Shown one piece after another: positions 8,080 to 19,896 of a stretch of 64,000 nt of DNA (positions are counted from its first letter, which is position 1; the number at the start of each line of letters is the position of its first letter). This stretch comes from Dehalococcoidia bacterium (lineage in GTDB: Bacteria > Chloroflexota > Dehalococcoidia > Bin125): contig CBDCPP010000001.1 in NCBI GenBank assembly GCA_965220315.1, forward strand, positions 59,809 through 123,808, in the 5' to 3' direction. The notes beneath the pieces are model-generated. The model was not told the DNA's origin, made no database searches, and worked only from the letters and a program-made list of their open reading frames with translations. The position numbers and the translations under genes were made by a program.

Positions 8080-8293
8080 CTGTGTCACCTCACGGCCGCC
8101 CCTCCGACACTTACTCCAACCTCCGGCGCGTTGGAGCCGACGCCGCCATCCGCGGCTGCGCCGCCAACTTCTGGCGCAGACTTCTCCGGCGTCGCGCTTG
8201 CTGCGGCCGCTACGGTGATCCGGGCTGCTGAATCACCTGCGATCGTGCCATCCAGGAGGGATGGACACCACCCGCTGGCTCGCGAGACGGCGC

Positions 8294-9190
8294 CTAAATT
8301 CGCAACGATAGTTGCTGCGGCTCTGGCGATCTTTCGAAACGGCGTTGATCGAGGTCGCTGTAGCCCAAGGCTCTCTTCACCTCGTGCACGCGCCCCTCGA
8401 CCTGTGTCCGGTAGCGTTTTGGCGCGTGTTTCGTCCCGTAGAGCTGTTGATAGCCCGCGAGCAGATCGGGATATTCCTGTTGCAGAAACCCGAAAAAGTG
8501 TTCGCGCACATCGGGGCCGAGGTGCAGTACGTTCGATCCGATGAAGCGTGCGCCGTGCGCCGCCGCCGCGCGCACAGTGGCCGTGACCTTGGTCCGCTCC
8601 GCCGAGAGACCAGGCAGCAACGGTGCCACCAGCACGCCGCAATGCACGCCTGCGGATACTAGCTGCTCCATCACCCGAAGCCGCTGTGGCGGCTCCGGCG
8701 TGCCGGGCTCCGTCCGTTGCCAGATCTCCCGATCGACGGTGGGGACGCTGAAGCATACGCTCACGCCCGCGCGCCGGCCCAGCTCTTGCAGAATGTCGAC
8801 ATCCCGCACGATCAAGGTCCCCTTGGTCACGATCGAGACCGGCGTGCGGAAGCGCGTGAACAGCTCCAAGCTCTGTCGCGTGAGGCGGTAGCGCCCCTCT
8901 GCTGCCTGGTACGGATCCGTCGCCGTTCCCACGGCCACCTGCTCCCGCCGCCACCCCCGCCGTCCCAGCTCCCCCGCCAGCACCTCCGGCAGGTTCGTCT
9001 TGACGAAGATAATCCCCGAGAAGTCTGCTCCGGCCCCGAGTTCGAGATAGCGGTGCGTCGAGCGTGCGAAGCAATACTGGCACCCGTGCACGCAACCCCG
9101 GTACGGGTTCAGCGACCAGCCGAACGCCATCCCCCGGACCCGGTTCAGCGCGGACTTGCATGCGATCTCCCGGTATTCGGCCTGCGCCAT
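8294..9190 (-). CDS. Radical SAM protein, spore-photoproduct-lyase-like DNA repair family (SplB/Rv2578c-like)
   Basis: The CxxxCxxC motif in NPYRGCVHGCQYCFARS is present, with overall similarity to SPL-type radical SAM 'DNA repair photolyase' proteins. The ATG at 9190 is preceded by AAGGTGGAGAGG. The track ORF 8085..9251 in another frame of the same strand is considered spurious. Confidence 0.75.
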   Translation of the reverse strand: MAQAEYREIACKSALNRVRGMAFGWSLNPYRGCVHGCQYCFARSTHRYLELGAGADFSGIIFVKTNLPEVLAGELGRRGWRREQVAVGTATDPYQAAEGRYRLTRQSLELFTRFRTPVSIVTKGTLIVRDVDILQELGRRAGVSVCFSVPTVDREIWQRTEPGTPEPPQRLRVMEQLVSAGVHCGVLVAPLLPGLSAERTKVTATVRAAAAHGARFIGSNVLHLGPDVREHFFGFLQQEYPDLLAGYQQLYGTKHAPKRYRTQVEGRVHEVKRALGYSDLDQRRFERSPEPQQLSLRI

Positions 9191-9266
9191 TGCCTCTCCA
9201 CCTTTCCAGAGCCATTGAACGCGGAGCCCTCTCGCGCTTCGGCCAGGCCATAACGGGGCCACATAT

Positions 9267-9412: not shown

Positions 9413-10501
9413 ATGAGCAGCTATCGCATCGCGCTGCTGCCGGGCGACGGCATCGGCCCCGAGGTCATCGCCGAGGCCGTCAAGATCCTTGACGTCGTCG
9501 GCCGCCAGTTCGGCCACGACTTCACCTACAGCGAGGCCACCGTCGGCGGGGCCGCCATCGACGCCTACGGTACCGCTCTCCGCCCGCAGGACCTCGCCAT
9601 GTGCAAGCGCCAGCACGCCGTTCTCTTCGGCGCCGTCGGTGGCCCCCAGTGGGACAATCCCCGCGCCAAAGTCCGTCCCGAGCAAGCCATTCTCGGCCTG
9701 CGCAAAGGCTTGCGCCTCTTCGCCAACATTCGCCCCGTCAAGATGTTCAGCTTTCTCGCCAACAGCACCACGCTCAAACGCGCCGTCGTCAAGGATGTCG
9801 ACATGATCATCCTGCGCGAGCTCACCGGCGGCATCTACTTCGGCAAGCCCCAACGCCGTTGGTCCGACTCCCGCGGCCGCAAGGCCGTCGACACCCTGCG
9901 CTACTCCGAGCAGGAGATCGAGCGTATCGTCCGCCTCGCCTTCGAACTCGCGCGCGGCCGTCGCAAGCACGTCACTTCCGTCGACAAAGCCAACGTCCTC
10001 GACAGCTCCCGGCTCTGGCGCGAAGTCGCGACCGAAGTTGCTCCCGACTACCCGGACGTCACTCTTCGCCACCTTCTCGTCGACGCCGCCGCCATGCACC
10101 TCATCCGCCAGCCCGCCGATTTCGATGTCGTCGTCACCGAAAACCTCTTCGGCGACATCCTCACGGACGAAGCCTCCATGCTCGGCGGCTCCATGGGCAT
10201 GCTGCCCAGTGCCAGCCTCGGCCGCCGCCGCAAGGACGGCACCGGTCTCGGTCTCTACGAGCCCATTCACGGCACCGCTCCCGACATCGCCGGTTCCGGC
10301 AAAGCCAACCCCGCCGCCGCGATCCTCAGCGCCGCCCTGCTGCTGCGCCATTCCCTCGGCCTGGAAGACGAAGCCGCCGCCGTCGAGCGCGCCGTCGAGA
10401 AAGTCCTGCGCGCCGGCCACCGCCCCCCGGACATCGCCTTGCCGGGCAAACGCCCCCTCAAGACTCGCCGGCTGGGCGACCGGATCGCCGCTGCGATCTA
10501 G
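9413..10501 (+). CDS. leuB: 3-isopropylmalate dehydrogenase
   Basis: [26 protein letters not shown] is present, along with the isocitrate/isopropylmalate dehydrogenase motif [39 protein letters not shown] precedes the start. Confidence 0.9.
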
Positions 10502-10688: not shown

Positions 10689-13600
10689 GTGAGAGTACCA
10701 GTGCCGCGAATCTTCGATAATCTGGCCTCTGACTCCAAGCTCCTTCCCGCCCTGCAGGAGACCTTCGCCCTCTCATCCCGGGCGGACCTATGCGTTGGCT
10801 ACTTCAATCTCAGGGGTTGGGGAGGTCTTGCGCCGTATGTGGATCGTTGGGATTCAGACGTAGGTCCGTGCCGTGTGCTCATTGGGATGCAACGTCTGCC
10901 CCACGAAGAGCTTAGGGACGCCAGCAGTCTGACGGATCGGTTCTCCGGCATGGACAACCAGACGGCGCATCGCCTTAAGGTCCAGTTAGCCGAGCAGCTG
11001 CGCCAGCAACTGACCATTGGAGTACCTACCAACATAGACGAGCAGGTCCTGCGGCGGCTGGCAGCTCAACTTCGCGCGGGTAAGGTCGTTGTTAAGCTCT
11101 ATCTCCGCCACCCTCTCCATGCCAAGCTCTATCTCCTGTTCCGTGACGACCCCATCAATCCGATCGTGGGTTATCTGGGCAGCAGCAATCTGACGTTTTC
11201 CGGCCTGTCTGGCCAAGGTGAACTGAATATTGATGTGCTCGACCACGACGCCGCCCTCAAACTCCAAAAGTGGTTCGAGGACAGGTGGAGCGACAAATAC
11301 TGCATTGACATCACGGACGAGCTGGTCGAGATCATTGAAGAGAGCTGGGCGCGCGAGGCCCTGATCCCGCCTTATCACGTCTACCTCAAGATGGCCTATC
11401 ACCTTTCCCACGAGGCCCGCGCGGGCCTGGCCGAGTTCAAGATTCCAGCAGTCTTTGGTGACCGTCTCTTCGACTTCCAGGCTGCGGCGGTCAAGATCGC
11501 AGCCCACCATCTGAACAAGCGCAACGGTGTACTCATCGGCGACGTGGTGGGGCTCGGCAAGACTCTGATGGCCACGGCCGTGGCTCGCATCTTCGAGGAC
11601 GACTACGGACTAGAGACCCTGATCCTGTGCCCCAAAAACCTCGTCGGCATGTGGGAAGACTACGTCCACGAGTATCGACTGCGAGCCAGAGTCCTCTCAC
11701 TCAGCAAGATGATCAGCGAACTCCCCGATCTGCGCCGGTACCGGCTGGTCATCATCGACGAGAGCCACAATCTCCGGAACCGGGAGGGCAAACGGTATCG
11801 CGCGATTCAGGAGTACGTCCGCGCCAACGACAGTAAGTGCATCCTGCTATCGGCTACGCCTTACAACAAGACCTACTTGGACCTGTCGAATCAGCTGCGC
11901 ATCTTCGTAGAAGATGATCAAGATCTCGGCATCCGTCCCGAGAAGCTTCTCCGCGAATTGGGGGAGGTCGAGTTCAGCAGGCGGCACCAAGCATCCCCCC
12001 GAACTCTGGCGGCCTTCGACCAGAGCAAGCACGCCGCCGACTGGCGCGACCTGATGCGTCTCTATCTCGTGCGCCGGACACGGAGCTTCATCCAGGACAA
12101 CTACGCGGAGACGGACCCGGAAACAGGTCGAAAGTTCCTTACGTACGAGGATGGAAACAGATCGTTCTTCCCAACCCGCGTGCCAAGGACGGTCAAGTTC
12201 ACTATCGACGAGTCTGACCCGGTAGACCAATACGCTCGCCTGTATTCGCAGGACGTGGTCGATATCGTAAAAACGCTGCAACTGCCCCGTTACGGTCTCG
12301 GCAACTACGTCGCTGATGATCCCCACCTTCTGCCCACGCAAGCGGAGGCGGGGCAGATAGAAGACCTCTCACGGGCGGGCAAGCGGCTCATGGGTTTCTG
12401 CCGCACGAACCTTTTAAGCGCCTCGAAAGTAGCGGCGCGGCCTTCCTGCAGTCGGTGGAGCGTCACGTGCTCCGAAACTACGTCTTCCTCCACGCAATCC
12501 GCCAGGGACTGCTGCTGCCTCTGGGCACCCAGGACGCCGAAATGCTCGACTCGCGATTCACCGACGAGGACGCGGACGGGCCTCTGGCTAGCATCTTCGA
12601 ACTCGAAAATGAGGACGAGAAGGATCAAGGAGCCGGAGAGTCCGGCGCCCCAAGAGTACCCATCCTGACGGCGGCCGACTTCGAAGCGCGCGCCGCTGAG
12701 ATATACGCAGAGTACGAGAGCCGCTACCAGCGAAGATTCAAGTGGCTCCGCTCCAGTCTCTTTACGGACGCGCTGGAAGCTGACCTTCAGTCGGACGCCG
12801 CCGCCCTTTTGCAGGTCCTTCAGGCGCATGGAACCTGGAACCCGGAACATGACGCGAAACTGCACGCTCTCCACACTCTCCTCGCGGAGACGTTCCCCGA
12901 CCGGAAGGTGCTGGTCTTCTCTCAGTTCGCGGACACGGTCCGTTATCTGGAGGAGCAACTCGAGGGCAGAGGCGTGACCGCCATGGCCGGAGTGACCGGT
13001 GACTCCGCCGACCCAACGGGACTTGCACAGCGGTTCAGTCCGGTCAGCAACGAGAAGGGGGATGTCATCTCGCCCGGACAGGAACTTCGCATCCTGATTG
13101 CCACCGACGTGCTAAGCGAAGGGCAGAATCTTCAGGACTGCTCGGTGGTCGTGAACTACGATCTGCCGTGGGCAATCATCCGGCTCATCCAGCGTGTGGG
13201 CCGTGTGGACCGCATCGGTCAGAAGGCGGAGGAAATCCTGTGCCACTCTTTCCTGCCCGCCGAAGGGGTCGAGGGCATCATCAAACTCCGTAACCGAGTC
13301 CGGACGCGGCTCCAAGAGAATGCCGAGGTCGTCGGCGCGGACGAAGCGTTCTTCGAAGACGAGGCCGACTCACGGACCATCCTCAACCTCTACCACGAAA
13401 GAGCCGGCATCTTGGATGGCGACGCCGACAGTGAGGTGGACTTGGCCTCCCACGCCTACCAAATATGGAAGAACGCCATCAGTGCGGACCCGTCACTGGA
13501 GAAAGCCGTCGCTAACCTGCCCGACGTGGTGTTCTCGTCGCGGCAGCATGCGCCTATAGCCCAGCGACCGGAGGGCGTCCTCGTCTTCATGCGCACCGCG

Positions 13601-14110
13601 GACGGGAACGACGCTCTCGCCTACGTCGGGCGGGATGGCCGGAGCATCACCGAGTCGCAGATCGAAATCCTCGCCGCTGCCGAGTGCGGGCGGGACACCC
13701 CCGCTCAGCCTCATCACGAGAGCCACCATCACCTTGTTGCCGAGGGGGTCAAGCACATCGTCAAGGAGGAGAAGCGGGTTGGGGGCCAGCTTGGACGGCC
13801 TTCGGGCGCGCGCTTCCGCACCTATACCCGTCTCAAGCAGTACGCGGAGGAGATCAGAGGCCAGCTCTTCGACACCGCACCGCTGCACAAGGCCATCGAC
13901 GACATCTATCGGTACCCCTTGCGCCAGTCGGCCGTTGACACCCTGAACCGGCAGTTACGCAGCGGGGTCGACGACATAGCGCTGGCCGGCATCGTCATCT
14001 CTTTGCACGAGGAAGACCGGCTGTGCGTAACCGACGGCGACGACGCCGAGGTCCAAGAGCCGCGGATCATCTGTTCTCTGGGGCTCTTCGACGGTGAAGA
14101 GGGCGCCTGA
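10689..14110 (+). CDS. PLD(HKD)-family nuclease domain fused to an SNF2/DEAD-like helicase, with an apparent frameshift between two overlapping ORFs (10689..12668 and 12455..14110); possible pseudogene or sequencing error
   Basis: N-terminal HKD motif HPLHAKLYLLFRDD...GYLGSSNLTFSGL. Helicase motif I is LIGDVVGLGKTLMATAV, motif II is IIDESHNLRN and motif VI is QRVGRVDRIGQ. Frame 2 is open from 12320, and the frame-0 tail after about 12420 is Ser/Thr/Cys-rich nonsense. The likely real start is the GTG at 10701, which has a GAGAG RBS. The stop overlaps the methyltransferase ATG (tgATGc). Confidence 0.7.
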
Positions 14111-16974
14111 TGCCGGTCGCGATTGATGAGCTGCGGCCCCACCTGCAGACCTTCGACTTCCGAAGCCTTTTGGTGGAAGGGTTGGGATGGGACCACTACC
14201 TGGCGGAACCCCTGAGCGTTCCGGTGGAAGGTCACGATTATCTCTTGGAGCCGGTCGCGGAGAAGGCTGGATTCGTTGTTTACGCCTGCGGCCCCGGCGC
14301 TGACGGTTCGATCCCCGAGTACCCGGTCCGGCGAAAGATCGAGCAGCAGGTTGCCAAGCTGGCGTTCGAGCACATGCTTATCTTCGTCGATGCCGGACGG
14401 GACACGCAGATCTGGCAGTGGGTCAAGCGGGAGAGCGGAAAGCCCGCTGCCTGCCGCGAGCAAACGTTCCACCGAGGCCAGACAGGGGAGCCCCTGCTCC
14501 AGCGCCTTCAGACCCTTGCCTTTGAGCTGGAAGAACAGGGTCGGCTGAGTATTCCGGAGGTTGCCTCTCGCGTCCAGCGGGCCATGGACGTGGAGAAAAT
14601 CACCAAGCGCTTCTATGAGCGCTTCAAGACGGAACTCGAAGCCTTCCAGAGCTTCATCGACGGCATCGCCGAACAGGGCGACCGCGAGTGGTACGCCTCC
14701 CTGATGCTCAATCGCATGATGTTCATCTACTTCGTCCAGAAGCAGGGCTTCCTCGACGGCGATCCCGACTATCTCCGCAACCGTCTGCACATGGTCCAGA
14801 ACGGGCGCGGCGCCGGACGGTTCCAGCAGTTCTACCGCATCTTCCTGTTGCGGCTGTTCCATGAAGGGCTGGGACGGCCCGAAGCGGAGAGGTCGCCCGA
14901 TCTGGCCGCGCTGCTGGGCAAGGTCCCCTTCCTCAACGGCGGCCTGTTCGACGTGCACGACCTGGAGCGAGACAACCCGGACATCAGCATCCCCGATGAG
15001 GCCTTCGAGGAGGTCTTCGCCTTCTTCGACGGCTACCGCTGGCACCTCGACGAGCGGTCCGACAAGGTCGACAACGAGATCAATCCCGACGTGCTCGGCT
15101 ACATCTTCGAGAAGTACATCAACCAGAAACAGATGGGCGCCTACTACACCAAGGAGGACATCACCGGCTACATCACCCGCAACACGGTGATCCCTTTCCT
15201 CTTCGCCGCCGCCAAGAAAGAATGCCCGGTGGCCTTCGCTCCCGGAGGCGGCGTCTGGCGCCTGCTGCAGGACGACCCCGACCGCTACATCTACCCCGCC
15301 GTCGGGCACGGCCTCGCCTGGGCGTACGCCACCGATGCCGAGCCTCAGCCTCTAGAACATCCTTTGGATCTACCGGAGGAGATCGCTGCGGGCGTTGATG
15401 ACGTGTCCAAGCGCGGGAACTGGAACCAGCCCGCCTCCGCCGCCCACGCCCTGCCCACCGAGACCTGGCGCGAGGTGGTGGCCCGGCGCCAGCGCTACCA
15501 GGAAGTCCGCGCCACGCTTGCGGCGGGCGGGATTTCCGACGTCAACGACTGCATCACCTTGAACCTCAATATCGAGCGGTTTGTAAAGGACGTCATCGTC
15601 CAGAGCGAGGGACCGGAGCTGCTGCGCGCCTTCTGGCACGCCATGCGCGATGTCGCCGTGCTCGATCCTGCCTGCGGGTCGGGCGCTTTCCTCTTCGCCG
15701 CACTCAACATCCTCGAACCGCTCTACACGGCCTGCCTGGAGGGGATGTGGGGCTTCCTCGATGACCTGGAGCGCTCGAACCATCCTCGCCACCCCGAGAC
15801 CATGCGCGACTTCCGAGCCGTTCTGAAACAGGTCGCACAGCACCCCAGCGAGCGCTATTTCATCCTTAAGTCCATCGTCCTCAACAACCTCTACGGCGTC
15901 GATATCATGGAAGAGGCAGTCGAGATCTGTAAGCTGCGTCTCTTCCTCAAGCTCGTCGCCCAGCTCGAAACCCCCGACCAGATCGAGCCGCTGCCCGACA
16001 TCGATTTCAACATCCGCGCCGGCAATACTCTGGTGGGCTTCACCTCGCTCGACGCGGTACAGCAGGCCATGACCATCATGCCCGACGGCCAGCATCGCGC
16101 CCTGTTCGATGAGGAACGGATCATGCTCGACCTCATCAAGGAGGAAGCGGAAGTCGCGAGCCGGGCCTTTGACCAGTTCCGGGAGCAGCAGACCAAGCTC
16201 GGCGGCGAGGTCACCGCCGCAGACAAGGCCGACCTGCGCCTCCGTTTGGAGGGCCTCGGGAACGAACTCGACCGCTACCTGGCGACCGAGTACAGGATCG
16301 ACCCCGACGACCCGGACGCCTTGGGAAGCTGGCGTAAAAGCCACCAACCCTTTCACTGGTTCGTGGAGTTCTACGGGATCATGAACAAAGGTGGGTTCGA
16401 CGTGGTTATCGGGAATCCGCCATACATAGCAAGACGGAAGGTAATCCAGTCGTACACGCCGAAGGGGTTTCGCACGGCAGACTGTCCGGACGTGTACGCC
16501 ACGGTCGTGGAGCGAAGCGTCAACGTCTGTCGGGCCAATGGTCGTATCGGCATGATAGTGCCGCTCAACCTGACCTTCAGCGCGAACTTCGCCAGTCTGC
16601 GCGCGATCATGTACGAGAAATGCGGCTCCAACTGGTTCTCATCGTTTGGACGCATCCCGTCGGCTCTCTTCAGCTTTGATACGCGGGTGCGCAACACGAT
16701 ATATCTAGGACAGAAGTCATCCGGCGCATCCACGCACTGCTTCACCACGCGGCTTCACAGGTGGTTCGACTCCCAGCGGCAAGCGCTGTTCGAGGTCCTG
16801 TCCTACGCTCCCTTCTCGTCGGCGGCTTTCGATGGGTTGGTTGCCCAAGATAGGCAGCGCCCGGCTTCTACGAGATTTTCAGTCTCTGTTGGAGGGCGGA
16901 GAGTATCGGCTCCGGAACGAACTTTCCCCCACACGCGACGGTCATCCTCTTCATTTCAAGCAGACTGCGTATAA
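14110..16974 (+). CDS. Gamma-class N6-adenine DNA methyltransferase, large (PglX/Eco57I/DrmMI-like); the C-terminus may continue into the next ORF by a frameshift
   Basis: Motif X is GAYYTKEDITGYI, motif I is VLDPACGSGAFLFAALN and motif IV is VIGNPPYIARRK, in gamma-class order. There is a long N-terminal helical domain. The last roughly 50 aa of this frame are low-complexity (RQRPASTRFSVSVGGRRVS...). Confidence 0.8.
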   Translation: MPVAIDELRPHLQTFDFRSLLVEGLGWDHYLAEPLSVPVEGHDYLLEPVAEKAGFVVYACGPGADGSIPEYPVRRKIEQQVAKLAFEHMLIFVDAGRDTQIWQWVKRESGKPAACREQTFHRGQTGEPLLQRLQTLAFELEEQGRLSIPEVASRVQRAMDVEKITKRFYERFKTELEAFQSFIDGIAEQGDREWYASLMLNRMMFIYFVQKQGFLDGDPDYLRNRLHMVQNGRGAGRFQQFYRIFLLRLFHEGLGRPEAERSPDLAALLGKVPFLNGGLFDVHDLERDNPDISIPDEAFEEVFAFFDGYRWHLDERSDKVDNEINPDVLGYIFEKYINQKQMGAYYTKEDITGYITRNTVIPFLFAAAKKECPVAFAPGGGVWRLLQDDPDRYIYPAVGHGLAWAYATDAEPQPLEHPLDLPEEIAAGVDDVSKRGNWNQPASAAHALPTETWREVVARRQRYQEVRATLAAGGISDVNDCITLNLNIERFVKDVIVQSEGPELLRAFWHAMRDVAVLDPACGSGAFLFAALNILEPLYTACLEGMWGFLDDLERSNHPRHPETMRDFRAVLKQVAQHPSERYFILKSIVLNNLYGVDIMEEAVEICKLRLFLKLVAQLETPDQIEPLPDIDFNIRAGNTLVGFTSLDAVQQAMTIMPDGQHRALFDEERIMLDLIKEEAEVASRAFDQFREQQTKLGGEVTAADKADLRLRLEGLGNELDRYLATEYRIDPDDPDALGSWRKSHQPFHWFVEFYGIMNKGGFDVVIGNPPYIARRKVIQSYTPKGFRTADCPDVYATVVERSVNVCRANGRIGMIVPLNLTFSANFASLRAIMYEKCGSNWFSSFGRIPSALFSFDTRVRNTIYLGQKSSGASTHCFTTRLHRWFDSQRQALFEVLSYAPFSSAAFDGLVAQDRQRPASTRFSVSVGGRRVSAPERTFPHTRRSSSSFQADCV

Positions 16975-17443
16975 CTGGCTGACCTTTTGCGTAGATCAGC
17001 CTCCCGCATTCGGGCCGGATGGCGATCATATTCTTCAGACCGAGTATGGAACGGTGAAGTTCGGAAATCAGAACAACCGAGATCTGTCCATGTTGCTGGC
17101 GAACGGCAAGCTCATGTTCGTGTGGTGGGCTGGAGTTGGAGACGATTTTCACCTAACTCAGACAGTTCTCAAGAGCGCTCCGGTGGGGCCAAGACAACTC
17201 ACGGAGGAACACCAGAAGTTTCTTCTGGCTTCGCTGCTGGATCTAGAGCGTGCTATGGCTGAGAACGTGGTGTTCAAGCGGAACGCAGGTAAGAACATCG
17301 GGAACTACAACCTGGCCCGCTGCCGCTGGATCACGGACAAAGCGGACAAAGTCTGGCTGGAAGCGCTGGCCCTGAGCGATCTATGGGAGGAGATCCAACT
17401 GGAGTATTCGCTGGTGGTCAGGACCTCCTTTGAGGAGGAGTAA
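16832..17443 (+). CDS. Hypothetical 203-aa ORF; either the methyltransferase target-recognition/C-terminal domain reached by a frameshift, or a separate small gene
   Basis: It overlaps the methyltransferase ORF end by about 140 nt in a different frame, and its frame is open from 16709. Its translation is protein-like, whereas the methyltransferase-frame tail is not. Its end overlaps the start of the next gene, which suggests translational coupling. Confidence 0.45.
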   Translation: MGWLPKIGSARLLRDFQSLLEGGEYRLRNELSPTRDGHPLHFKQTAYNWLTFCVDQPPAFGPDGDHILQTEYGTVKFGNQNNRDLSMLLANGKLMFVWWAGVGDDFHLTQTVLKSAPVGPRQLTEEHQKFLLASLLDLERAMAENVVFKRNAGKNIGNYNLARCRWITDKADKVWLEALALSDLWEEIQLEYSLVVRTSFEEE

Positions 17444-18011
17444 GAAGACGCGTTTGAGGGTCAACCTCCCACCGGCGACTGTGGTGAAGGGCAATCTCGA
17501 CCTGCTTGGTGAGTCGTTGACTGCCCTCTTCTGCTCCGTCCGCTGTCCCGGCGATCTAATTCTCAAAACCTACGATCTCGCCAGGGCGATGCGCGGTTCC
17601 GGCACGCCCGTGATCGGTGGCTTCCAAACGCCGATGGAGAAGGAGTGCCTGCGCCTGCTGCTCCGGGGCAGTCAGCCGGTCGTCGTGTGCCCGGCTCGTG
17701 GCATCGAGAAGATGCGGGTCCCCCGTGACTGGCGCCCAGCCCTGGAGGAAGGCCGGCTGCTGGTCCTCTCCCTCTTCCCGCCCTCGCGCCGCCGTCCCAC
17801 GGCGGAGACCGCCGCCCGGCGCAACGACTTAGTGGCATCCCTCGCCCGCGAGGTCTTCATCGCTCACGCCGCCGCGGGCGGCAAGACCGAAGCCTTCGCC
17901 CGTAAGATCGCGGACTCCGGCAAGCCCCTCCTCACTCTCGACAGCCCTGCCAACGCGAACCTGCTGGCGCTGGGCGCCCGCCCCGTCACGCCGGAGTTCG
18001 CTCAGCGCTGA
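17430..18011 (+). CDS. DprA/Smf-like (SLOG-superfamily Rossmann) protein
   Basis: The pattern GSGTPVIGGFQTPMEKECLRLLL...VVVCPARGIE...RLLVLS...RRNDLVASLAREVFIAHAAAGGKTEAF matches the DprA Rossmann nucleotide/ssDNA-binding fold. It begins at a TTG/GTG alternative start that overlaps the previous ORF. Confidence 0.6.
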   Translation: MRRSKKTRLRVNLPPATVVKGNLDLLGESLTALFCSVRCPGDLILKTYDLARAMRGSGTPVIGGFQTPMEKECLRLLLRGSQPVVVCPARGIEKMRVPRDWRPALEEGRLLVLSLFPPSRRRPTAETAARRNDLVASLAREVFIAHAAAGGKTEAFARKIADSGKPLLTLDSPANANLLALGARPVTPEFAQR

Positions 18012-18261: not shown

Positions 18262-19896
18262 GTGAACGCTCCGCGTGTGATCCTCTACGACACCATTCTC
18301 CGCGACGGCTCCCAGATGGAAGGCATCGCCTTCTCCCTTGAGGACAAGCTCGCCATCGCGCACCGCCTCGACGATATCGGCGTCCACTACATCGAAGGCG
18401 GCTTCCCCGGCTCCAACGAGAAGGACCGCCTCTTCTTTCAAGAGATCAAGCGCACTCCCCTCAAGCATGCCAAGGTGGTCGCCTTCGGTGGCACCCGCCG
18501 CGCCGGCCTCCAGGTCCAGGACGATCCCAACATCCAAGCGATCGCGGATGCGGACACCACCGTCGTCACCCTCGTCGGCAAGGCCAGCAGCTATCAGGTC
18601 CGCGTCGCCCTCGAGACCAGCGGCGAAGAGAACCTCGCCATGATCGCCGACTCCGTCGCTCACTTCAAAGCCCTCGGCCGCGAGGTCGGCTTCGACGCCG
18701 AGCACTTCTTCGACGGTTTCCGTGACGACTCGGACTACGCTCTCCAAACCCTCCGCACTGCCGCCCGCGCCGGCGCCGACACGCTCATCCTCTGTGACAC
18801 CAACGGCGGCGCTCTCACCGCCGACCTCGTGCACGCGATCGAAGCTGCCAAACGAGCCGTCCCGCAGGCGCAGTTTGGCATCCACGTCCACAACGACACC
18901 GGCCTCGCCGTCGCTAACAGCCTCGCCGCCGTCTCCGCCGGCGTTGTGCAAGTCCAAGGCTGCTTCAACGGTTACGGCGAACGCTGCGGTAACGCCAACC
19001 TCGCTACCATCCTCGCCACCCTCCAGCTCAAAATGGGCATTCCCGTTGTCAACAACGAGCAGCTCGCCCGCCTCACCGAGATCTCCCGCTACATCGCCGA
19101 ACTCGCCAACCTCCCCTTAGATTCGCAAGCCCCATACGTCGGCGCCAGTGCCTTCGCCCACAAGGCCGGCTACCACGTCGCCGCCGTCATCAAGGACGAG
19201 AACACCTATCAACACGCGAAACCCGCCGCCGTCGGCAACGACCGCCGGGTCCTCGTCAGCGAGCTCTCCGGGCAGCGCAATATCTCCTACAAACTGCGAG
19301 AGCGCGGCCTGGACCTTCCCCTTACTCCCGAAGAGACCAGGGCCCTGCTCGAACGCGTCAAGCAGATGGAGAGCCGCGGGTACCAGTACGAGGGCGCCGA
19401 TGCCTCCTTCGAGCTACTCGCCCATCGCGCCCGTCCCAACTACACGCCCCCCTTCGAGCTTGAGGACTTTCTCATCGTAGAGCGTCGCCGCCACACGGCT
19501 GATCTTGCCAACGGGGAAGCCGAAAACGAGGCGGCCGAGAACAGTGAGCGCAACGAGATGCTCGCCGAAGCGATGGCCAAGGTCGGCGTTTCCGATCAGC
19601 TCTTCCAGACCGCCGCCGAAGGTAACGGGCCCGTCAACGCGCTCGACCGGGCCGTTCGCAAAGGCTTGCGCGAGGCCTACCCCGCGCTCGACCGCATGCA
19701 CCTGCTCGACTACAAGGTTCGTATCCTCGACGCTGCCGCCGGTACCGAGGCCAAAGTCCGCGTCCTCATCGAATCCACCGACGGCGAGCACATCTGGAAC
19801 ACCGTTGGCTCCTCCACCGATGTGATCGAGGCCTCCTGGCTGGCTCTCGCCGACGCCTTCGAATACTTTCTGCTCAAGCAAGAAGAATGGCGCTAA
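18262..19896 (+). CDS. cimA: LeuA-family 2-isopropylmalate/(R)-citramalate synthase (probably CimA)
   Basis: MNAPRVILYDTILRDGSQMEGIAFSLEDKLAIAHRLDDIGVHYIEGGFPGSN and HVHNDTGLAVANSLAAV are present, with a LeuA-like C-terminal regulatory domain. It is a second paralog besides leuA in an ilv/leu context. The start is a GTG. Confidence 0.85.
   Translation: MNAPRVILYDTILRDGSQMEGIAFSLEDKLAIAHRLDDIGVHYIEGGFPGSNEKDRLFFQEIKRTPLKHAKVVAFGGTRRAGLQVQDDPNIQAIADADTTVVTLVGKASSYQVRVALETSGEENLAMIADSVAHFKALGREVGFDAEHFFDGFRDDSDYALQTLRTAARAGADTLILCDTNGGALTADLVHAIEAAKRAVPQAQFGIHVHNDTGLAVANSLAAVSAGVVQVQGCFNGYGERCGNANLATILATLQLKMGIPVVNNEQLARLTEISRYIAELANLPLDSQAPYVGASAFAHKAGYHVAAVIKDENTYQHAKPAAVGNDRRVLVSELSGQRNISYKLRERGLDLPLTPEETRALLERVKQMESRGYQYEGADASFELLAHRARPNYTPPFELEDFLIVERRRHTADLANGEAENEAAENSERNEMLAEAMAKVGVSDQLFQTAAEGNGPVNALDRAVRKGLREAYPALDRMHLLDYKVRILDAAAGTEAKVRVLIESTDGEHIWNTVGSSTDVIEASWLALADAFEYFLLKQEEWR

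Follow-up and report, generated by a model that had tools for sequence, protein, structure and literature searches.

The gene at positions 17430–18011 of the window, by which we mean the whole 64,000-nucleotide stretch of DNA analysed here, encodes a DprA-like single-domain SLOG protein that follows the genes for an HKD-SNF2 helicase-nuclease and an N6-adenine DNA methyltransferase. The DprA-like gene is the usual, not obligatory, third gene of this restriction-modification-like cassette, and its product, rather than acting in competence, most likely binds DNA and regulates the methyltransferase as its partner. The cassette is widespread and, as far as our literature search showed, apparently undescribed.

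The cassette and its flanks

The cassette lies on the + strand, bounded on the left by leuB (isopropylmalate dehydrogenase; 9413–10501, + strand; Pfam Iso_dh, E 5e-132) and on the right by a leuA/cimA-like 2-isopropylmalate/citramalate synthase gene (18262–19896, + strand; Pfam HMGL-like, HCS_D2 and LeuA_dimer), both given here as context only. As the first-pass annotation had proposed, the DprA-like gene stands last in a methyltransferase/helicase operon, and the next gene downstream is the leuA/cimA-like one. The GC content of the cassette is 0.57–0.64 against 0.64–0.69 in the flanks, with a shift in GC skew as well; to judge from its sequence, the cassette is a horizontally acquired segment inserted between leuB and leuA/cimA. 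Its chromosomal sites differ among genomes, with leu genes here and an amidohydrolase gene or transposases elsewhere.

The first gene (10689–14110, + strand, about 1130 aa) encodes an HKD(PLD)-SNF2 helicase-nuclease, as recognized by Pfam (PLDc_2, RE_NgoFVII, SNF2-rel_dom, ResIII and Helicase_C) and by PADLOC ('HKD+Snf2', C3a139), and the motifs HAK...GSSN, GLGKT, DESH and QRVGRVDRIGQ are all present. It reads as two open reading frames (10689–12668 and 12455–14110), apparently because one nucleotide has been lost from the T-run at 12412–12415; an intact homologue of 1129 aa covers both frames, at 84% and 76% identity, and the frames meet where MGFCRTNL is followed by FKRLESSGAAF, at CCTTTTAAG. 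The helicase stop overlaps the methyltransferase start (TGATG, 14108–14112).

The second gene (14110–17443, + strand, about 1100 aa) encodes an Eco57I/MmeI-family (type IIG/IIL-like) N6-adenine DNA methyltransferase, identified by Pfam (Eco57I, 93.6 bits, and MmeI_Mtase) and PADLOC (REase_MTase_IIG, PDLC03628, E 2.8e-283), with motif I (DPACGSG) and motif IV (NPPY) in place. The family alignment is conserved over residues 1–820 and at the C-terminus, on either side of a variable stretch at about 820–1040, the target-recognition region. Searches of the N-terminus gave no PD-ExK match in Pfam and nothing significant in Foldseek. This gene too is read as two open reading frames (14110–16974 and 16832–17443), because of a frameshift near 16828–16840. 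We considered and rejected the frame at 16832–17443 as a separate gene; it is the frameshifted C-terminus of the methyltransferase, with about 75% identity over its last 66–73 aa to the C-termini of intact homologues. Also rejected, given homopolymer breaks in a 4x long-read contig, was the idea that the split helicase and methyltransferase frames are pseudogenes or separate subunits. We read the frameshifts as probable assembly errors because the breaks fall at short homopolymer runs and other genes of the contig are split too. Many database homologues that come from long-read assemblies are truncated too.

The DprA-like frame runs on the + strand from TTG at 17430 to TGA at 18009–18011 and encodes 193 aa, or 185 aa if translation starts at the alternative TTG at 17454. 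The first of these starts overlaps the methyltransferase stop (TAA, 17441–17443) by 14 nt and the second lies 10 nt past it, and the translational coupling claimed at first pass is plausible in the window; in most relatives, however, the two genes are 0.6–6 kb apart, with a median spacing of about 3.1 kb, and tight coupling is the minority arrangement. A scan for promoters and terminators around the DprA-like gene gave nothing informative.

All four peptides previously picked out (GGFQTP, ARGIE, RNDLVASLA and AAAGGKTEAF) occur in the translation, and the gene is real and strongly conserved, with thousands of homologues, a low dN/dS and a confident fold. The homologues form 3252 clusters at 90% identity, the best 120 of which are 72–88% identical to the window protein, and 578 representatives of 50%-identity clusters match it at E ≤ 1e-30. 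The ratio dN/dS is about 0.2 (pairwise dN 0.13–0.21 against dS 0.63–1.8; median pN/pS 0.29), and these homologue numbers and this ratio rule out a chance open reading frame. The proteins are single-domain, and 110 of 121 complete frames encode 180–240 aa. The gene, whose linkage as a standalone domain to a restriction-modification-like module had been called unusual, is not rare; its family is large. No homologue was found in viral contigs, GenBank phages or PLSDB plasmids, so neither carriage on plasmids nor an origin in phage anti-restriction has support.

Fold and family placement of the DprA-like protein

The assignment to DprA/Smf is clear by structure and barely holds by sequence. The AF2 model (pLDDT 90.6) has a DprA-type Rossmann/SLOG fold, and with it Foldseek retrieves the DprA structures of H. 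pylori, S. pneumoniae and R. palustris (4ljl, 3uqz and 3maj; E 1e-9 to 1e-8, TM 0.71–0.73, identity about 20%) and ShosA (PDB 8zva; E 1.4e-8, TM 0.73). In this comparison of DprA, LOG, YpsA and other SLOG families the DprA clade and ShosA are closest, and YgdH, LOG, MoCo-carrier and YpsA proteins lie farther off (E 7e-5 to 1e-3, TM 0.46–0.58); a Pfam search gave no match to the LOG, YpsA, MoCo-carrier or TPALS clades. Pfam DNA_processg_A scores 30.7 bits, just above its gathering score of 29.6, and a sequence search of solved structures, whether with the single protein or with a 32-sequence profile, found no DprA at E ≤ 1. The best named sequence family is PsyrA (PADLOC PDLC03927, 57.3 bits, E 3.5e-16), in a match that spans profile positions 109–293 of 398 only, the central Rossmann part. 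The PADLOC ShosA model did not match the window protein at E ≤ 0.01.

Within the family alignment R38, G63-G64-F65-Q66-T67, M69, E70, E72, R131-N132 and T153-E154 are invariant, as are four cysteines (C35, C39, C73 and C87). When residues are mapped onto the DprA motifs by the secondary structure of the model, not by superposition, S36-x-R38 takes the place of the DprA G-S/T/A-R in the beta-alpha loop, and A128-A129-x-R131-N132 falls in the helix equivalent to that of DprA x-x-R-N/D. The second conserved loop of the family reads GGFQTPMExE, at a place where the DprA consensus is SGxAxGID. Given S-x-R in place of G-S/T/A-R, this loop and the unexplained cysteines, the ligand may be other than ssDNA. 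The DprA motifs for ssDNA are G-S/T/A-R in the beta3-alpha3 loop and F/L/Y-x-x-R-N/D or A-M-x-R-N/D in helix alpha6 (PMC3950713), and such motifs or residues are experimentally needed for ssDNA binding in HpDprA (PMC3950713) and ShosA (PMC12961424).

It is scarcely credible that the gene is a bona fide dprA/smf that serves natural transformation by loading RecA. The Pfam match just above threshold points that way, as does the name 'DNA-processing protein DprA' that some database records give to homologues. Yet the canonical DprA/Smf equivalog model TIGR00732 reaches 24.6 bits, below its cutoff of 191.15, the protein has one domain only, of about 190–220 aa, and reaches no solved DprA in sequence and profile searches, and the gene belongs to a cassette that was acquired horizontally. 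Its neighbours are leu genes and the restriction-modification-like cassette, with no competence genes nearby. A canonical competence DprA is effectively refuted by equivalog score, domain make-up and neighbourhood. The outcome named beforehand as contrary to a link with the cassette, homologues that are competence dprA genes without methyltransferase or helicase association, was looked for and is not what we found: in 59 of 73 loci the closest homologues follow the same helicase and methyltransferase genes.

Linkage to the cassette, fusions and variable cargo

The functional link of the DprA-like gene to the restriction-modification-like module is upheld by three independent kinds of evidence: synteny across phyla, co-variation and fusions. 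Among the 73 DprA-like-anchored loci with at least 9 kb of upstream sequence, 59 have the methyltransferase gene upstream in the same orientation, and methyltransferase-linked loci span Chloroflexota, Acidobacteriota, Latescibacterota, Gemmatimonadota, Planctomycetota and others. The DprA-like gene lies downstream in 18 of the 26 metagenome loci that were anchored on the methyltransferase and extend at least 6 kb downstream of it; the other eight hold the helicase-methyltransferase core without it, and no gene family common to these eight turned up as a replacement for the third gene. Matrices of pairwise identity are correlated for helicase and DprA-like protein (r = 0.92), methyltransferase and DprA-like protein (r = 0.88) and helicase and methyltransferase (r = 0.92), with Mantel p = 0.001 and n = 50, values that partly reflect the shared ancestry of the loci.

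It is very improbable that the DprA-like gene has no functional link to the cassette and stands as the conserved right border of a defence-island hotspot, working by itself or in general DNA repair. Such a border would fit the variable cargo that usually parts it from the methyltransferase, the 14 of 73 loci with no methyltransferase within 10 kb, and the unrelated contexts of more distant relatives. On the other hand, the gene always keeps the same strand and order, co-varies as strongly as do the two undisputed partners, is found fused to methyltransferase sequence and moves with the cassette across phyla into different sites, and most of the loci counted as having no methyltransferase keep typical cargo or methyltransferase remnants upstream.

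The two-gene core is also present, in the same gene order, on plasmids pSYSX of Synechocystis PCC 6803, where Slr6050 (M.Ssp6803IV) adjoins a 'helicase-related protein', and pPRO1 of Pelobacter propionicus; this homologous core differs from the cassette in that a search of both plasmids found no DprA-like gene. Its proteins are 44–48% (methyltransferase) and 51–54% (helicase) identical to the intact Bryobacterales proteins (L002), and Slr6050 is 48.6% identical to the window methyltransferase. The Synechocystis core, into which a VapBC pair is inserted, retains intact HKD (GSSN), GLGKT, DESH and NPPY motifs. Slr6050 methylates GAm6AGGC and its knockout fails to segregate (PMC6105098); the gene is treated there as an orphan-like methyltransferase, and the helicase goes unmentioned (PMC6105098). 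That slr6050 cannot be deleted fits a live restriction partner working without a DprA-like protein, and the core offers a simple explanation for this resistance of a plasmid methyltransferase to deletion, in a genetically tractable organism.

Nine independent 50%-identity clusters, together with one homologue of fusion protein P0125, comprise proteins of 688–770 aa in which a truncated methyltransferase is fused to a C-terminal DprA-like domain. They join methyltransferase residues of about 12–133 and 480–770 to that domain, which is 50–58% identical, and their methyltransferase halves end at GGFDVV(L), without NPPY, so they show association with the methyltransferase scaffold, not an active enzyme. 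Every fusion found joins methyltransferase sequence and none joins the helicase, in a family that is sparsely sampled (the search with P0125 gave at least three matches). The fusion genes occur outside the cassette context, and the fusion proteins could be decay products.

That the fusions involve the methyltransferase bears on two other readings. In the first, which we consider rather unlikely, the DprA-like protein would be an antitoxin of the PsyrA/RqlI type that binds and restrains the HKD-SNF2 helicase-nuclease, its loss or titration on infection releasing the nuclease. No other named family matches as well as PsyrA, the DprA-like gene follows an SF2 helicase gene as in rqlH-rqlI, many helicase genes have no DprA-like partner, here as for rqlH (PMC4670107), and helicase and DprA-like protein form the most strongly co-varying pair. 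The absence of helicase fusions argues against this, however, as do the role of the methyltransferase as an existing protective partner, the N-terminal region that RqlI needs for activity (PMC4670107) and the DprA-like protein lacks, and the toxic PRTase module of RqlH, which is missing here. In the second, a quite unlikely reading, the protein would be an activating sensor for ssDNA or DNA ends that invade by conjugation, by transformation or with ssDNA or replicating phages, and would bring in or license the helicase-nuclease. The DprA-type pocket residues are kept, an accessory component could widen the target range, and in ShosTA the interaction between the DprA-like protein and RecA is modulated by ssDNA, which may trigger the system (PMC12961424). 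Nevertheless, the known DprA-like defence proteins neutralize rather than activate, the fusions are to the methyltransferase scaffold, and no effector or adaptor domain exists beyond the single Rossmann fold.

Usually a bay of variable cargo (VapBC, CBASS cyclase or HNH genes) parts the methyltransferase gene from the DprA-like gene. Directly upstream of the DprA-like gene, across a spacer of about 40 nt, a CBASS-type cyclase (PADLOC Cyclase PDLC00790, E 2e-94; Pfam SMODS) is found in 38 of 80 genome-set loci, in 27 of which no other candidate receptor lies between the two, and a Cap17-like N-terminal SLOG gene without effector domain is inserted beside the DprA-like gene in 11 loci. A cyclase occurs in one of 80 methyltransferase-anchored metagenome loci, and there is none in the window. 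In about half of the closest loci the immediate upstream neighbour is the cyclase, not the methyltransferase, an observation that counts against a partnership with the methyltransferase.

These cyclase loci would suit a second-messenger receptor, in which the SLOG domain binds a cyclic oligonucleotide or other nucleotide and couples the signal to the restriction module, a role that we regard as highly doubtful. The cyclases with no other candidate receptor and the effectorless Cap17-like genes are consistent with it, SLOG domains are reported to sense nucleotides in Thoeris ThsA (PMC11204291), and the invariant acidic loop GGFQTPMExE is unlike that of DprA. By contrast, most of the wider DprA-like family, like the window, has no cyclase, the cyclase and its accompanying VapBC pair are one among many alternative cargo sets, and the fold is far closer to DprA and ShosA than to LOG, YpsA and other SLOG clades. 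A bolder proposal, speculative at best, would make the DprA-like protein the ligand-gated switch of an undescribed three-component system, wired to the cyclase in the closest clade, in which a signal or ssDNA picks methylation or cleavage. The components would be an HKD-SNF2 motor-nuclease, a methyltransferase of the M.Ssp6803IV type and the DprA-like subunit, the signal would be a cyclic oligonucleotide, and the junction would be a module-capturing bay. If true, the cyclase-wired switch would link second-messenger immunity to restriction-modification by a direct mechanism. The cargo bay offers a way to discover more small defence modules.

Proposed regulatory model and comparison with known systems

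The reading that we prefer, plausible if tentative, is that the DprA-like protein is a non-catalytic accessory regulatory subunit of an ATP-dependent, restriction-modification-like defence cassette. The methyltransferase would use its variable recognition region to read a short asymmetric motif and would mark host DNA with N6-methyladenine, and the SNF2 motor with its N-terminal HKD nuclease would translocate on and cut unmarked DNA. The DprA-like protein may dock on the N-terminal half of the methyltransferase, and its DprA-type pocket (R38, R131 and N132) may bind ssDNA or a nucleotide. As a safety or regulatory factor it would steer the complex to modification or restrain cleavage, perhaps at transiently single-stranded or unmethylated host DNA such as replication forks and repair gaps. 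Both roles offered at first pass, a sensor of ssDNA or DNA ends and a modulator, are ones that we infer.

Three precedents inform this model. HpDprA makes physical contact with methyltransferases and stimulates methylation, and it also inhibits type II restriction enzymes (PMC3597690); the RecQ-like helicase RqlH/PsyrT is held in check by RqlI/PsyrA, whose gene lies downstream of the helicase gene (PMC4670107); and ShosA is a DprA-like, ssDNA-binding antitoxin (PMC12961424). By likeness to HpDprA, PsyrA/RqlI and ShosA the regulation would be protective, though an activating effect would fit our results too. The cassette would be a third setting, after PsyrTA and ShosTA, where bacterial immunity has taken up a stripped-down DprA domain, here in company with a helicase-nuclease system based on methylation. 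From the fusions and the accessory distribution follow testable predictions on how self-restriction is avoided where only one strand of an asymmetric site is methylated.

Set beside the type IIL/IIG enzymes MmeI, DrdV and Eco57I, the cassette shares a gamma-class N6-adenine methyltransferase with a fused recognition domain, but it differs in that Pfam and Foldseek recognized no active N-terminal PD-ExK nuclease, cleavage presumably being delegated to the separate HKD-SNF2 motor, and in carrying the third, DprA-like gene. With DISARM class 1, BREX and the Hma/BREX-related type 2 systems it has in common the combination of an Eco57I-like or N6-adenine methyltransferase, an SNF2 helicase and a PLD/HKD nuclease, and type-2 BR systems also carry an N-terminal HKD domain on the SNF2 helicase (PMC12839542). 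The matches of its proteins to DrmD, DrmMI and PglX are weak, and every equivalog score is far below its cutoff; those to DrmD and DrmMI fall below threshold (e.g. 107.6 bits against a cutoff of 610), the DISARM class 1 core of DrmA helicase, DrmB and DrmC is absent, and those to PglX models reach at most 70.7 bits against cutoffs of 400–900. We found no DrmA, DrmB (DUF1998), PglZ, BrxC, DUF499 ATPase or DUF1156 methyltransferase in the cassette, and between its bounds at leuB and leuA there is no DUF1998 gene and no second helicase gene. MANTIS (BREX-related, with a dual ATPase) is probably a DUF499-type system, and some overlap of MANTIS with the cassette is conceivable. The descriptions found of DISARM, BREX and Hma-BR systems include no DprA-like component, and our literature search found no paper that joins a DprA-like protein, SNF2 and a methyltransferase in defence.

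Canonical DprA typically carries SAM and C-terminal winged-helix domains. The DprA-like protein shares its Rossmann/SLOG fold and keeps the R...R-N pocket residues, but it has no such accessory domains, fails the equivalog model, has other conserved loops and four invariant cysteines, and lies outside any competence context. Like PsyrA/RqlI, it belongs to a conflict system and is a DprA-type Rossmann domain whose gene follows that of an SF2 helicase, and in both cases the helicase is often found without the DprA-like partner. PsyrA/RqlI, however, has about 400 aa with an N-terminal region and a C-terminal HTH, of which the DprA-like protein corresponds to the central part only, and its partner is a RecQ-PRTase instead of an HKD-SNF2 helicase and a methyltransferase. 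PsyrT has a marginal match in the window, to the generic Helicase_C region only (E 6.6e-5), and no PRTase domain or gene of the PsyrT/RqlH or ShosT type was found in the cassette. ShosA, too, is a defence-associated, non-competence DprA-like protein, and its ssDNA-binding arginines have counterparts in R38 and R131, whereas it is 308 aa long, is paired with a PRTase toxin and acts through RecA. The closest functional precedent for the DprA-like protein is the effect of HpDprA on restriction-modification enzymes.

Gene content and integrity of the cassette

The DprA-like ORF runs on the + strand from a TTG start at 17430 to a TGA stop at 18009-18011 and encodes 193 aa, and its translation contains all of the peptide strings quoted in the first-pass annotation. 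The window holds many overlapping ORFs, and chance ORFs of such size arise in DNA of 62-66% GC; the number of its homologues and the constraint on its dN/dS nevertheless mark 17430-18011 clearly, at the sequence level, as a gene and not a chance ORF. A cluster search returned 3252 homologous clusters at 90% identity, the best 120 of which are 72-88% identical to it and 179-246 aa long, while 1.84 billion cluster representatives, scanned in full, contained 2776 matches at E ≤ 0.001, of which 1620 reach E ≤ 1e-10 and 578 reach E ≤ 1e-30. Compared with close homologues, the gene shows a dN of 0.13-0.21, a dS of 0.63-1.8 and a median pN/pS of 0.29. Across the fetched loci the protein is a single domain, 180-240 aa long in 110 of 121 complete ORFs. 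Many of the carriers are presumably sponge-associated MAGs, to judge from bin names (APA_bin, RHO3_bin, SAR202).

The four apparent ORFs upstream represent two genes. ORFs 10689-12668 and 12455-14110 align along the full length of a single intact 1129-aa protein (at 84% and 76% identity), with the frame changing at CCTTTTAAG, a T-run at 12412-12415 (the intact homologue reads ...CRTNLFKRLE... there). ORFs 14110-16974 and 16832-17443 match one protein of ~1100 aa, with a break near 16828-16840, and over the final 66-73 residues identity to the C-termini of intact homologues is ~75%. Both frameshifts fall at short homopolymer runs and are most likely assembly errors, since the contig is a '4x' long-read assembly on which the database gene calls (L001) also show leuA (18262-19896) split and leuD split or shortened, and since many methyltransferase homologues from long-read assemblies and MAGs are truncated; a pseudogene reading of the two split genes was rejected on the same grounds.

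The first gene (10689-14110, + strand) encodes an HKD(PLD)-SNF2 helicase-nuclease (Pfam PLDc_2, NgoFVII-type PLD, SNF2-rel_dom, ResIII and Helicase_C; PADLOC 'HKD+Snf2') with the motifs HAK...GSSN, GLGKT, DESH and QRVGRVDRIGQ. The second (14110-17443, + strand) encodes an Eco57I/MmeI-family N6-adenine methyltransferase (Eco57I, 93.6 bits; PADLOC type IIG PDLC03628, E 2.8e-283) with DPACGSG and NPPY. Within its family, residues 1-820 and the C-terminus are conserved and ~820-1040 variable, the pattern expected if the variable stretch were a swappable recognition domain. Its first 140 residues have a confident fold with no recognisable active nuclease, and the enzyme is type IIG/IIL-like. Helicase and methyltransferase genes overlap stop to start (TGATG). 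Counted from the TTG at 17430, the DprA-like gene overlaps the end of the methyltransferase gene by 14 nt; another possible TTG start, at 17454, lies 10 nt past the methyltransferase stop.

The cassette is flanked by leuB on the left, with leuC and leuD further left, and by a leuA/cimA-like gene on the right. It is an inserted island, judged by a GC content lower than that of its flanks (0.57-0.64 versus 0.64-0.69) and a differing GC skew. The competence-gene neighbourhood that the first-pass annotation had set against its own reading is absent, with no competence gene near the DprA-like gene. Left of the cassette, a 388-aa ORF (8085-9251, - strand) between leuD and leuB interrupts the leu run; it had no Pfam match in the scan of the window, and a shorter L001 gene call at the site is annotated Radical_SAM.

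To examine whether the DprA-like gene belongs to the cassette, we used 80 loci from species-representative genomes, anchored on this gene with up to 10 kb fetched upstream. They come mostly from Dehalococcoidia and other Chloroflexota, but also from Bryobacterales, Latescibacterota, Gemmatimonadota, Isosphaeraceae, Methylomirabilota and others. At least 9 kb of upstream sequence was available for 73 distinct loci, the window among them. In 59 of these the methyltransferase gene precedes the DprA-like gene in the same orientation, nearly always with the helicase directly before it, so that the association with methyltransferase and helicase genes proposed in the first-pass annotation is borne out. 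Most of the remaining loci still have typical intervening genes or methyltransferase remnants, and their core may have been lost or may sit more than 10 kb upstream, outside the fetched stretch. In the reverse direction, 80 metagenome loci from varied environments were anchored on the methyltransferase at ~50% identity. The helicase adjoins the methyltransferase almost wherever sequence is available, and of the 26 loci that extend at least 6 kb downstream, 18 carry the DprA-like gene there; the other eight lack it, also by HMM search, and share no substitute gene. Pairwise-identity matrices from 50 loci with all three genes complete co-vary strongly (helicase/DprA-like, r = 0.92; methyltransferase/DprA-like, 0.88; helicase/methyltransferase, 0.92; Mantel p = 0.001), and still at 0.84-0.90 within the close clade. 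Shared descent contributes to this co-variation. Even so, by these measures the DprA-like gene follows the cassette, across phyla and insertion sites, as tightly as helicase and methyltransferase follow each other, and it is very probably a functional part of it.

Family, fold and fusions of the DprA-like protein

By sequence alone, the protein can be called a DprA only marginally. Pfam DNA_processg_A scores 30.7 bits (gathering score 29.6) and the NCBI DprA equivalog 24.6 bits (cutoff 191), and no solved DprA was matched at E ≤ 1 by the sequence or by a 32-member family profile. Among named families it matches best to PsyrA, which is DprA-like and partners the PsyrT helicase (57 bits, E 3.5e-16, covering the central part of the 398-position model only). 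The AF2 model (pLDDT 90.6, pTM 0.85) has alternating beta-alpha elements and makes the predicted DprA assignment firm: Foldseek matches it to DprA of H. pylori, S. pneumoniae and R. palustris (E 1e-9 to 1e-8, TM 0.71-0.73, ~20% identity) and to ShosA, the DprA-like antitoxin of ShosTA (E 1.4e-8), with weaker matches to YgdH, LOG, MoCo-carrier and YpsA (E 7e-5 to 1e-3, TM ~0.5). On this ranking the choice among SLOG families posed by the first-pass annotation falls to the DprA clade, not to LOG or YpsA.

Invariant in the family alignment are R38 (in FCSxRCPG), R131-N132, T153-E154 and the loop G63-G64-F65-Q66-T67-x-M69-E70-x-E72. Four cysteines, C35, C39, C73 and C87 (17532-17690), are also invariant, two of them flanking the conserved arginine in FCSxRCPG; we know of no such conservation in canonical DprA, and they could form a putative metal or redox site. 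In the AF2 secondary structure, the loop following core strand one holds R38 and the helix preceding strand four holds R131-N132, predicted positions that correspond to the DprA ssDNA-binding motifs. In HpDprA these are G-S/T/A-R and F/L/Y-x-x-R-N/D, with a variant A-M-x-R-N/D (PMC3950713), and in ShosA the corresponding arginines are needed for ssDNA binding and antitoxin activity (PMC12961424). We therefore judge from the model that the basic pocket residues are probably kept, the remaining conserved loops being unlike those of DprA.

Nine of the 150 best cluster representatives are longer proteins, of 688-770 aa, that end in a DprA-like domain (50-58% identical), and one further homologue, found separately, has the same layout (P0125, P0137, P0141, P0146, P0147, P0164, P0181, P0187, P0267 and P0271; loci L087 and L088). 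Homology to methyltransferase residues ~12-133 and ~480-770 accounts for their N-terminal parts; a motif-I-like LDPxCGxG is kept and the methyltransferase part ends at GGFDVV(L). Lacking NPPY and the recognition domain, the fusions are not proof of an active fused enzyme. As Rosetta-stone evidence they suggest that it is the N-terminal, SAM-binding half of this methyltransferase family that the DprA-like domain works together with. They sit outside the cassette, away from any SNF2 helicase; one fusion gene adjoins or overlaps rmuC, and a RecQ and a SAM synthetase gene lie close to another.

A variable cargo bay

The distance from methyltransferase to DprA-like gene ranges from 58 to ~6200 nt (median ~3.1 kb), and the co-oriented genes between them vary among loci (L005, L010 and L015-L081; e.g. 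L005 6047-9972, L015 6917-9993). Their products include a VapBC-like pair made up of a 77-aa protein and a PIN toxin, an oligonucleotide cyclase of CBASS type (Pfam SMODS; PADLOC PDLC00790, E 2e-94), and a Cap17-like N-terminal (TPALS/SLOG) protein that lacks an effector domain. Nucleases (MTaX1-HNH and HNH-like), HicAB, DUF2442, pentapeptide-FRG and HTH-IrrE accompanied by a PIN-like protein also occur; several families, including the 370-aa c7 and 336-aa c19, have no Pfam match. This junction is a variable bay for small defence and toxin-antitoxin modules, and the window cassette is a compact version without cargo. The helicase/methyltransferase junction also takes cargo, given its PIN/VapBC inserts and a gap that widens from the usual 3-40 nt to ~580-760 nt in a dozen loci. 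Such a module was sometimes seen there, as at L005 2263-2739 and at 8332-8965 of L172, the Synechocystis locus.

The cyclase occurs in 38 of the 80 genome-set loci, in the clade closest to the window, and in just one of the 80 metagenome loci. It ends ~40 nt before the DprA-like gene (e.g. L015, L018, L019, L021, L023, L024, L027, L038 and L040) or is separated from it by the Cap17-like gene (11 loci); in 27 of the 38, no other candidate receptor or effector lies between. On the strength of this adjacency, the DprA-like protein may be a nucleotide receptor.

Proposed function and relation to known systems

The two-gene core has a cultured exemplar. Slr6050, from plasmid pSYSX of Synechocystis PCC 6803 (locus L172, 43696-51129), shares 48.6% identity with the window methyltransferase across 99% of the latter's intact part. 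Directly upstream of slr6050, a 'helicase-related protein' of 1151 aa shares 51% identity with the intact helicase of a Bryobacterales locus (L002), with GSSN, GLGKT and DESH present; a VapBC pair lies between the two genes, and pSYSX has no DprA-like gene. The same pair occurs on Pelobacter propionicus pPRO1 (L173). Slr6050 has been assigned as M.Ssp6803IV, which methylates the asymmetric motif GAm6AGGC, and attempts to segregate its knockout failed; the adjacent helicase goes unmentioned in the published analysis (PMC6105098). A neighbouring nuclease-motor attacking unmethylated DNA would account for this apparent essentiality, and the slr6050 data are indirect experimental support for a core that behaves like a restriction-modification system, whose methylation and cleavage activities can exist without the DprA-like protein.

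The three-gene unit combines two genes whose catalytic motifs are intact, those of one for methylation and those of the other for ATP-driven translocation with HKD cleavage, and a third whose product has a conserved DprA fold, looks non-enzymatic and retains basic pocket residues. We propose that this product docks on the methyltransferase, as the fusions suggest, binds ssDNA or a nucleotide in its pocket, and would modulate the choice between modification and cleavage. Tentatively, we favour a protective, ssDNA-binding protein that promotes modification, because every characterised relative acts protectively: HpDprA associates with methyltransferases, raises methylation and inhibits restriction enzymes (PMC3597690), RqlI/PsyrA restrains helicase-borne toxicity (PMC4670107), and ShosA neutralises ShosT via ssDNA and RecA binding (PMC12961424). 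Methylation of one strand of an asymmetric site would also leave unmethylated sites at each replication, calling for safeguards, and the DprA-like component is dispensable for the core, as expected of a modulator. The protein may instead be an activating sensor.

The cassette differs from each known system compared. The DprA-like protein falls outside canonical DprA on equivalog score, architecture and context, and outside PsyrTA and ShosTA, as PsyrT and ShosT are absent; the cassette lacks the core genes of DISARM, BREX and Hma/BR, with models far below cutoff. We found no description of the three-gene arrangement in the literature covered, which left out one recent preprint on a BREX-related system. 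The cassette is an ATP-dependent restriction-modification-like system of recognisable type, to which, to our knowledge, the DprA-like accessory subunit and the internal cargo bay are new.
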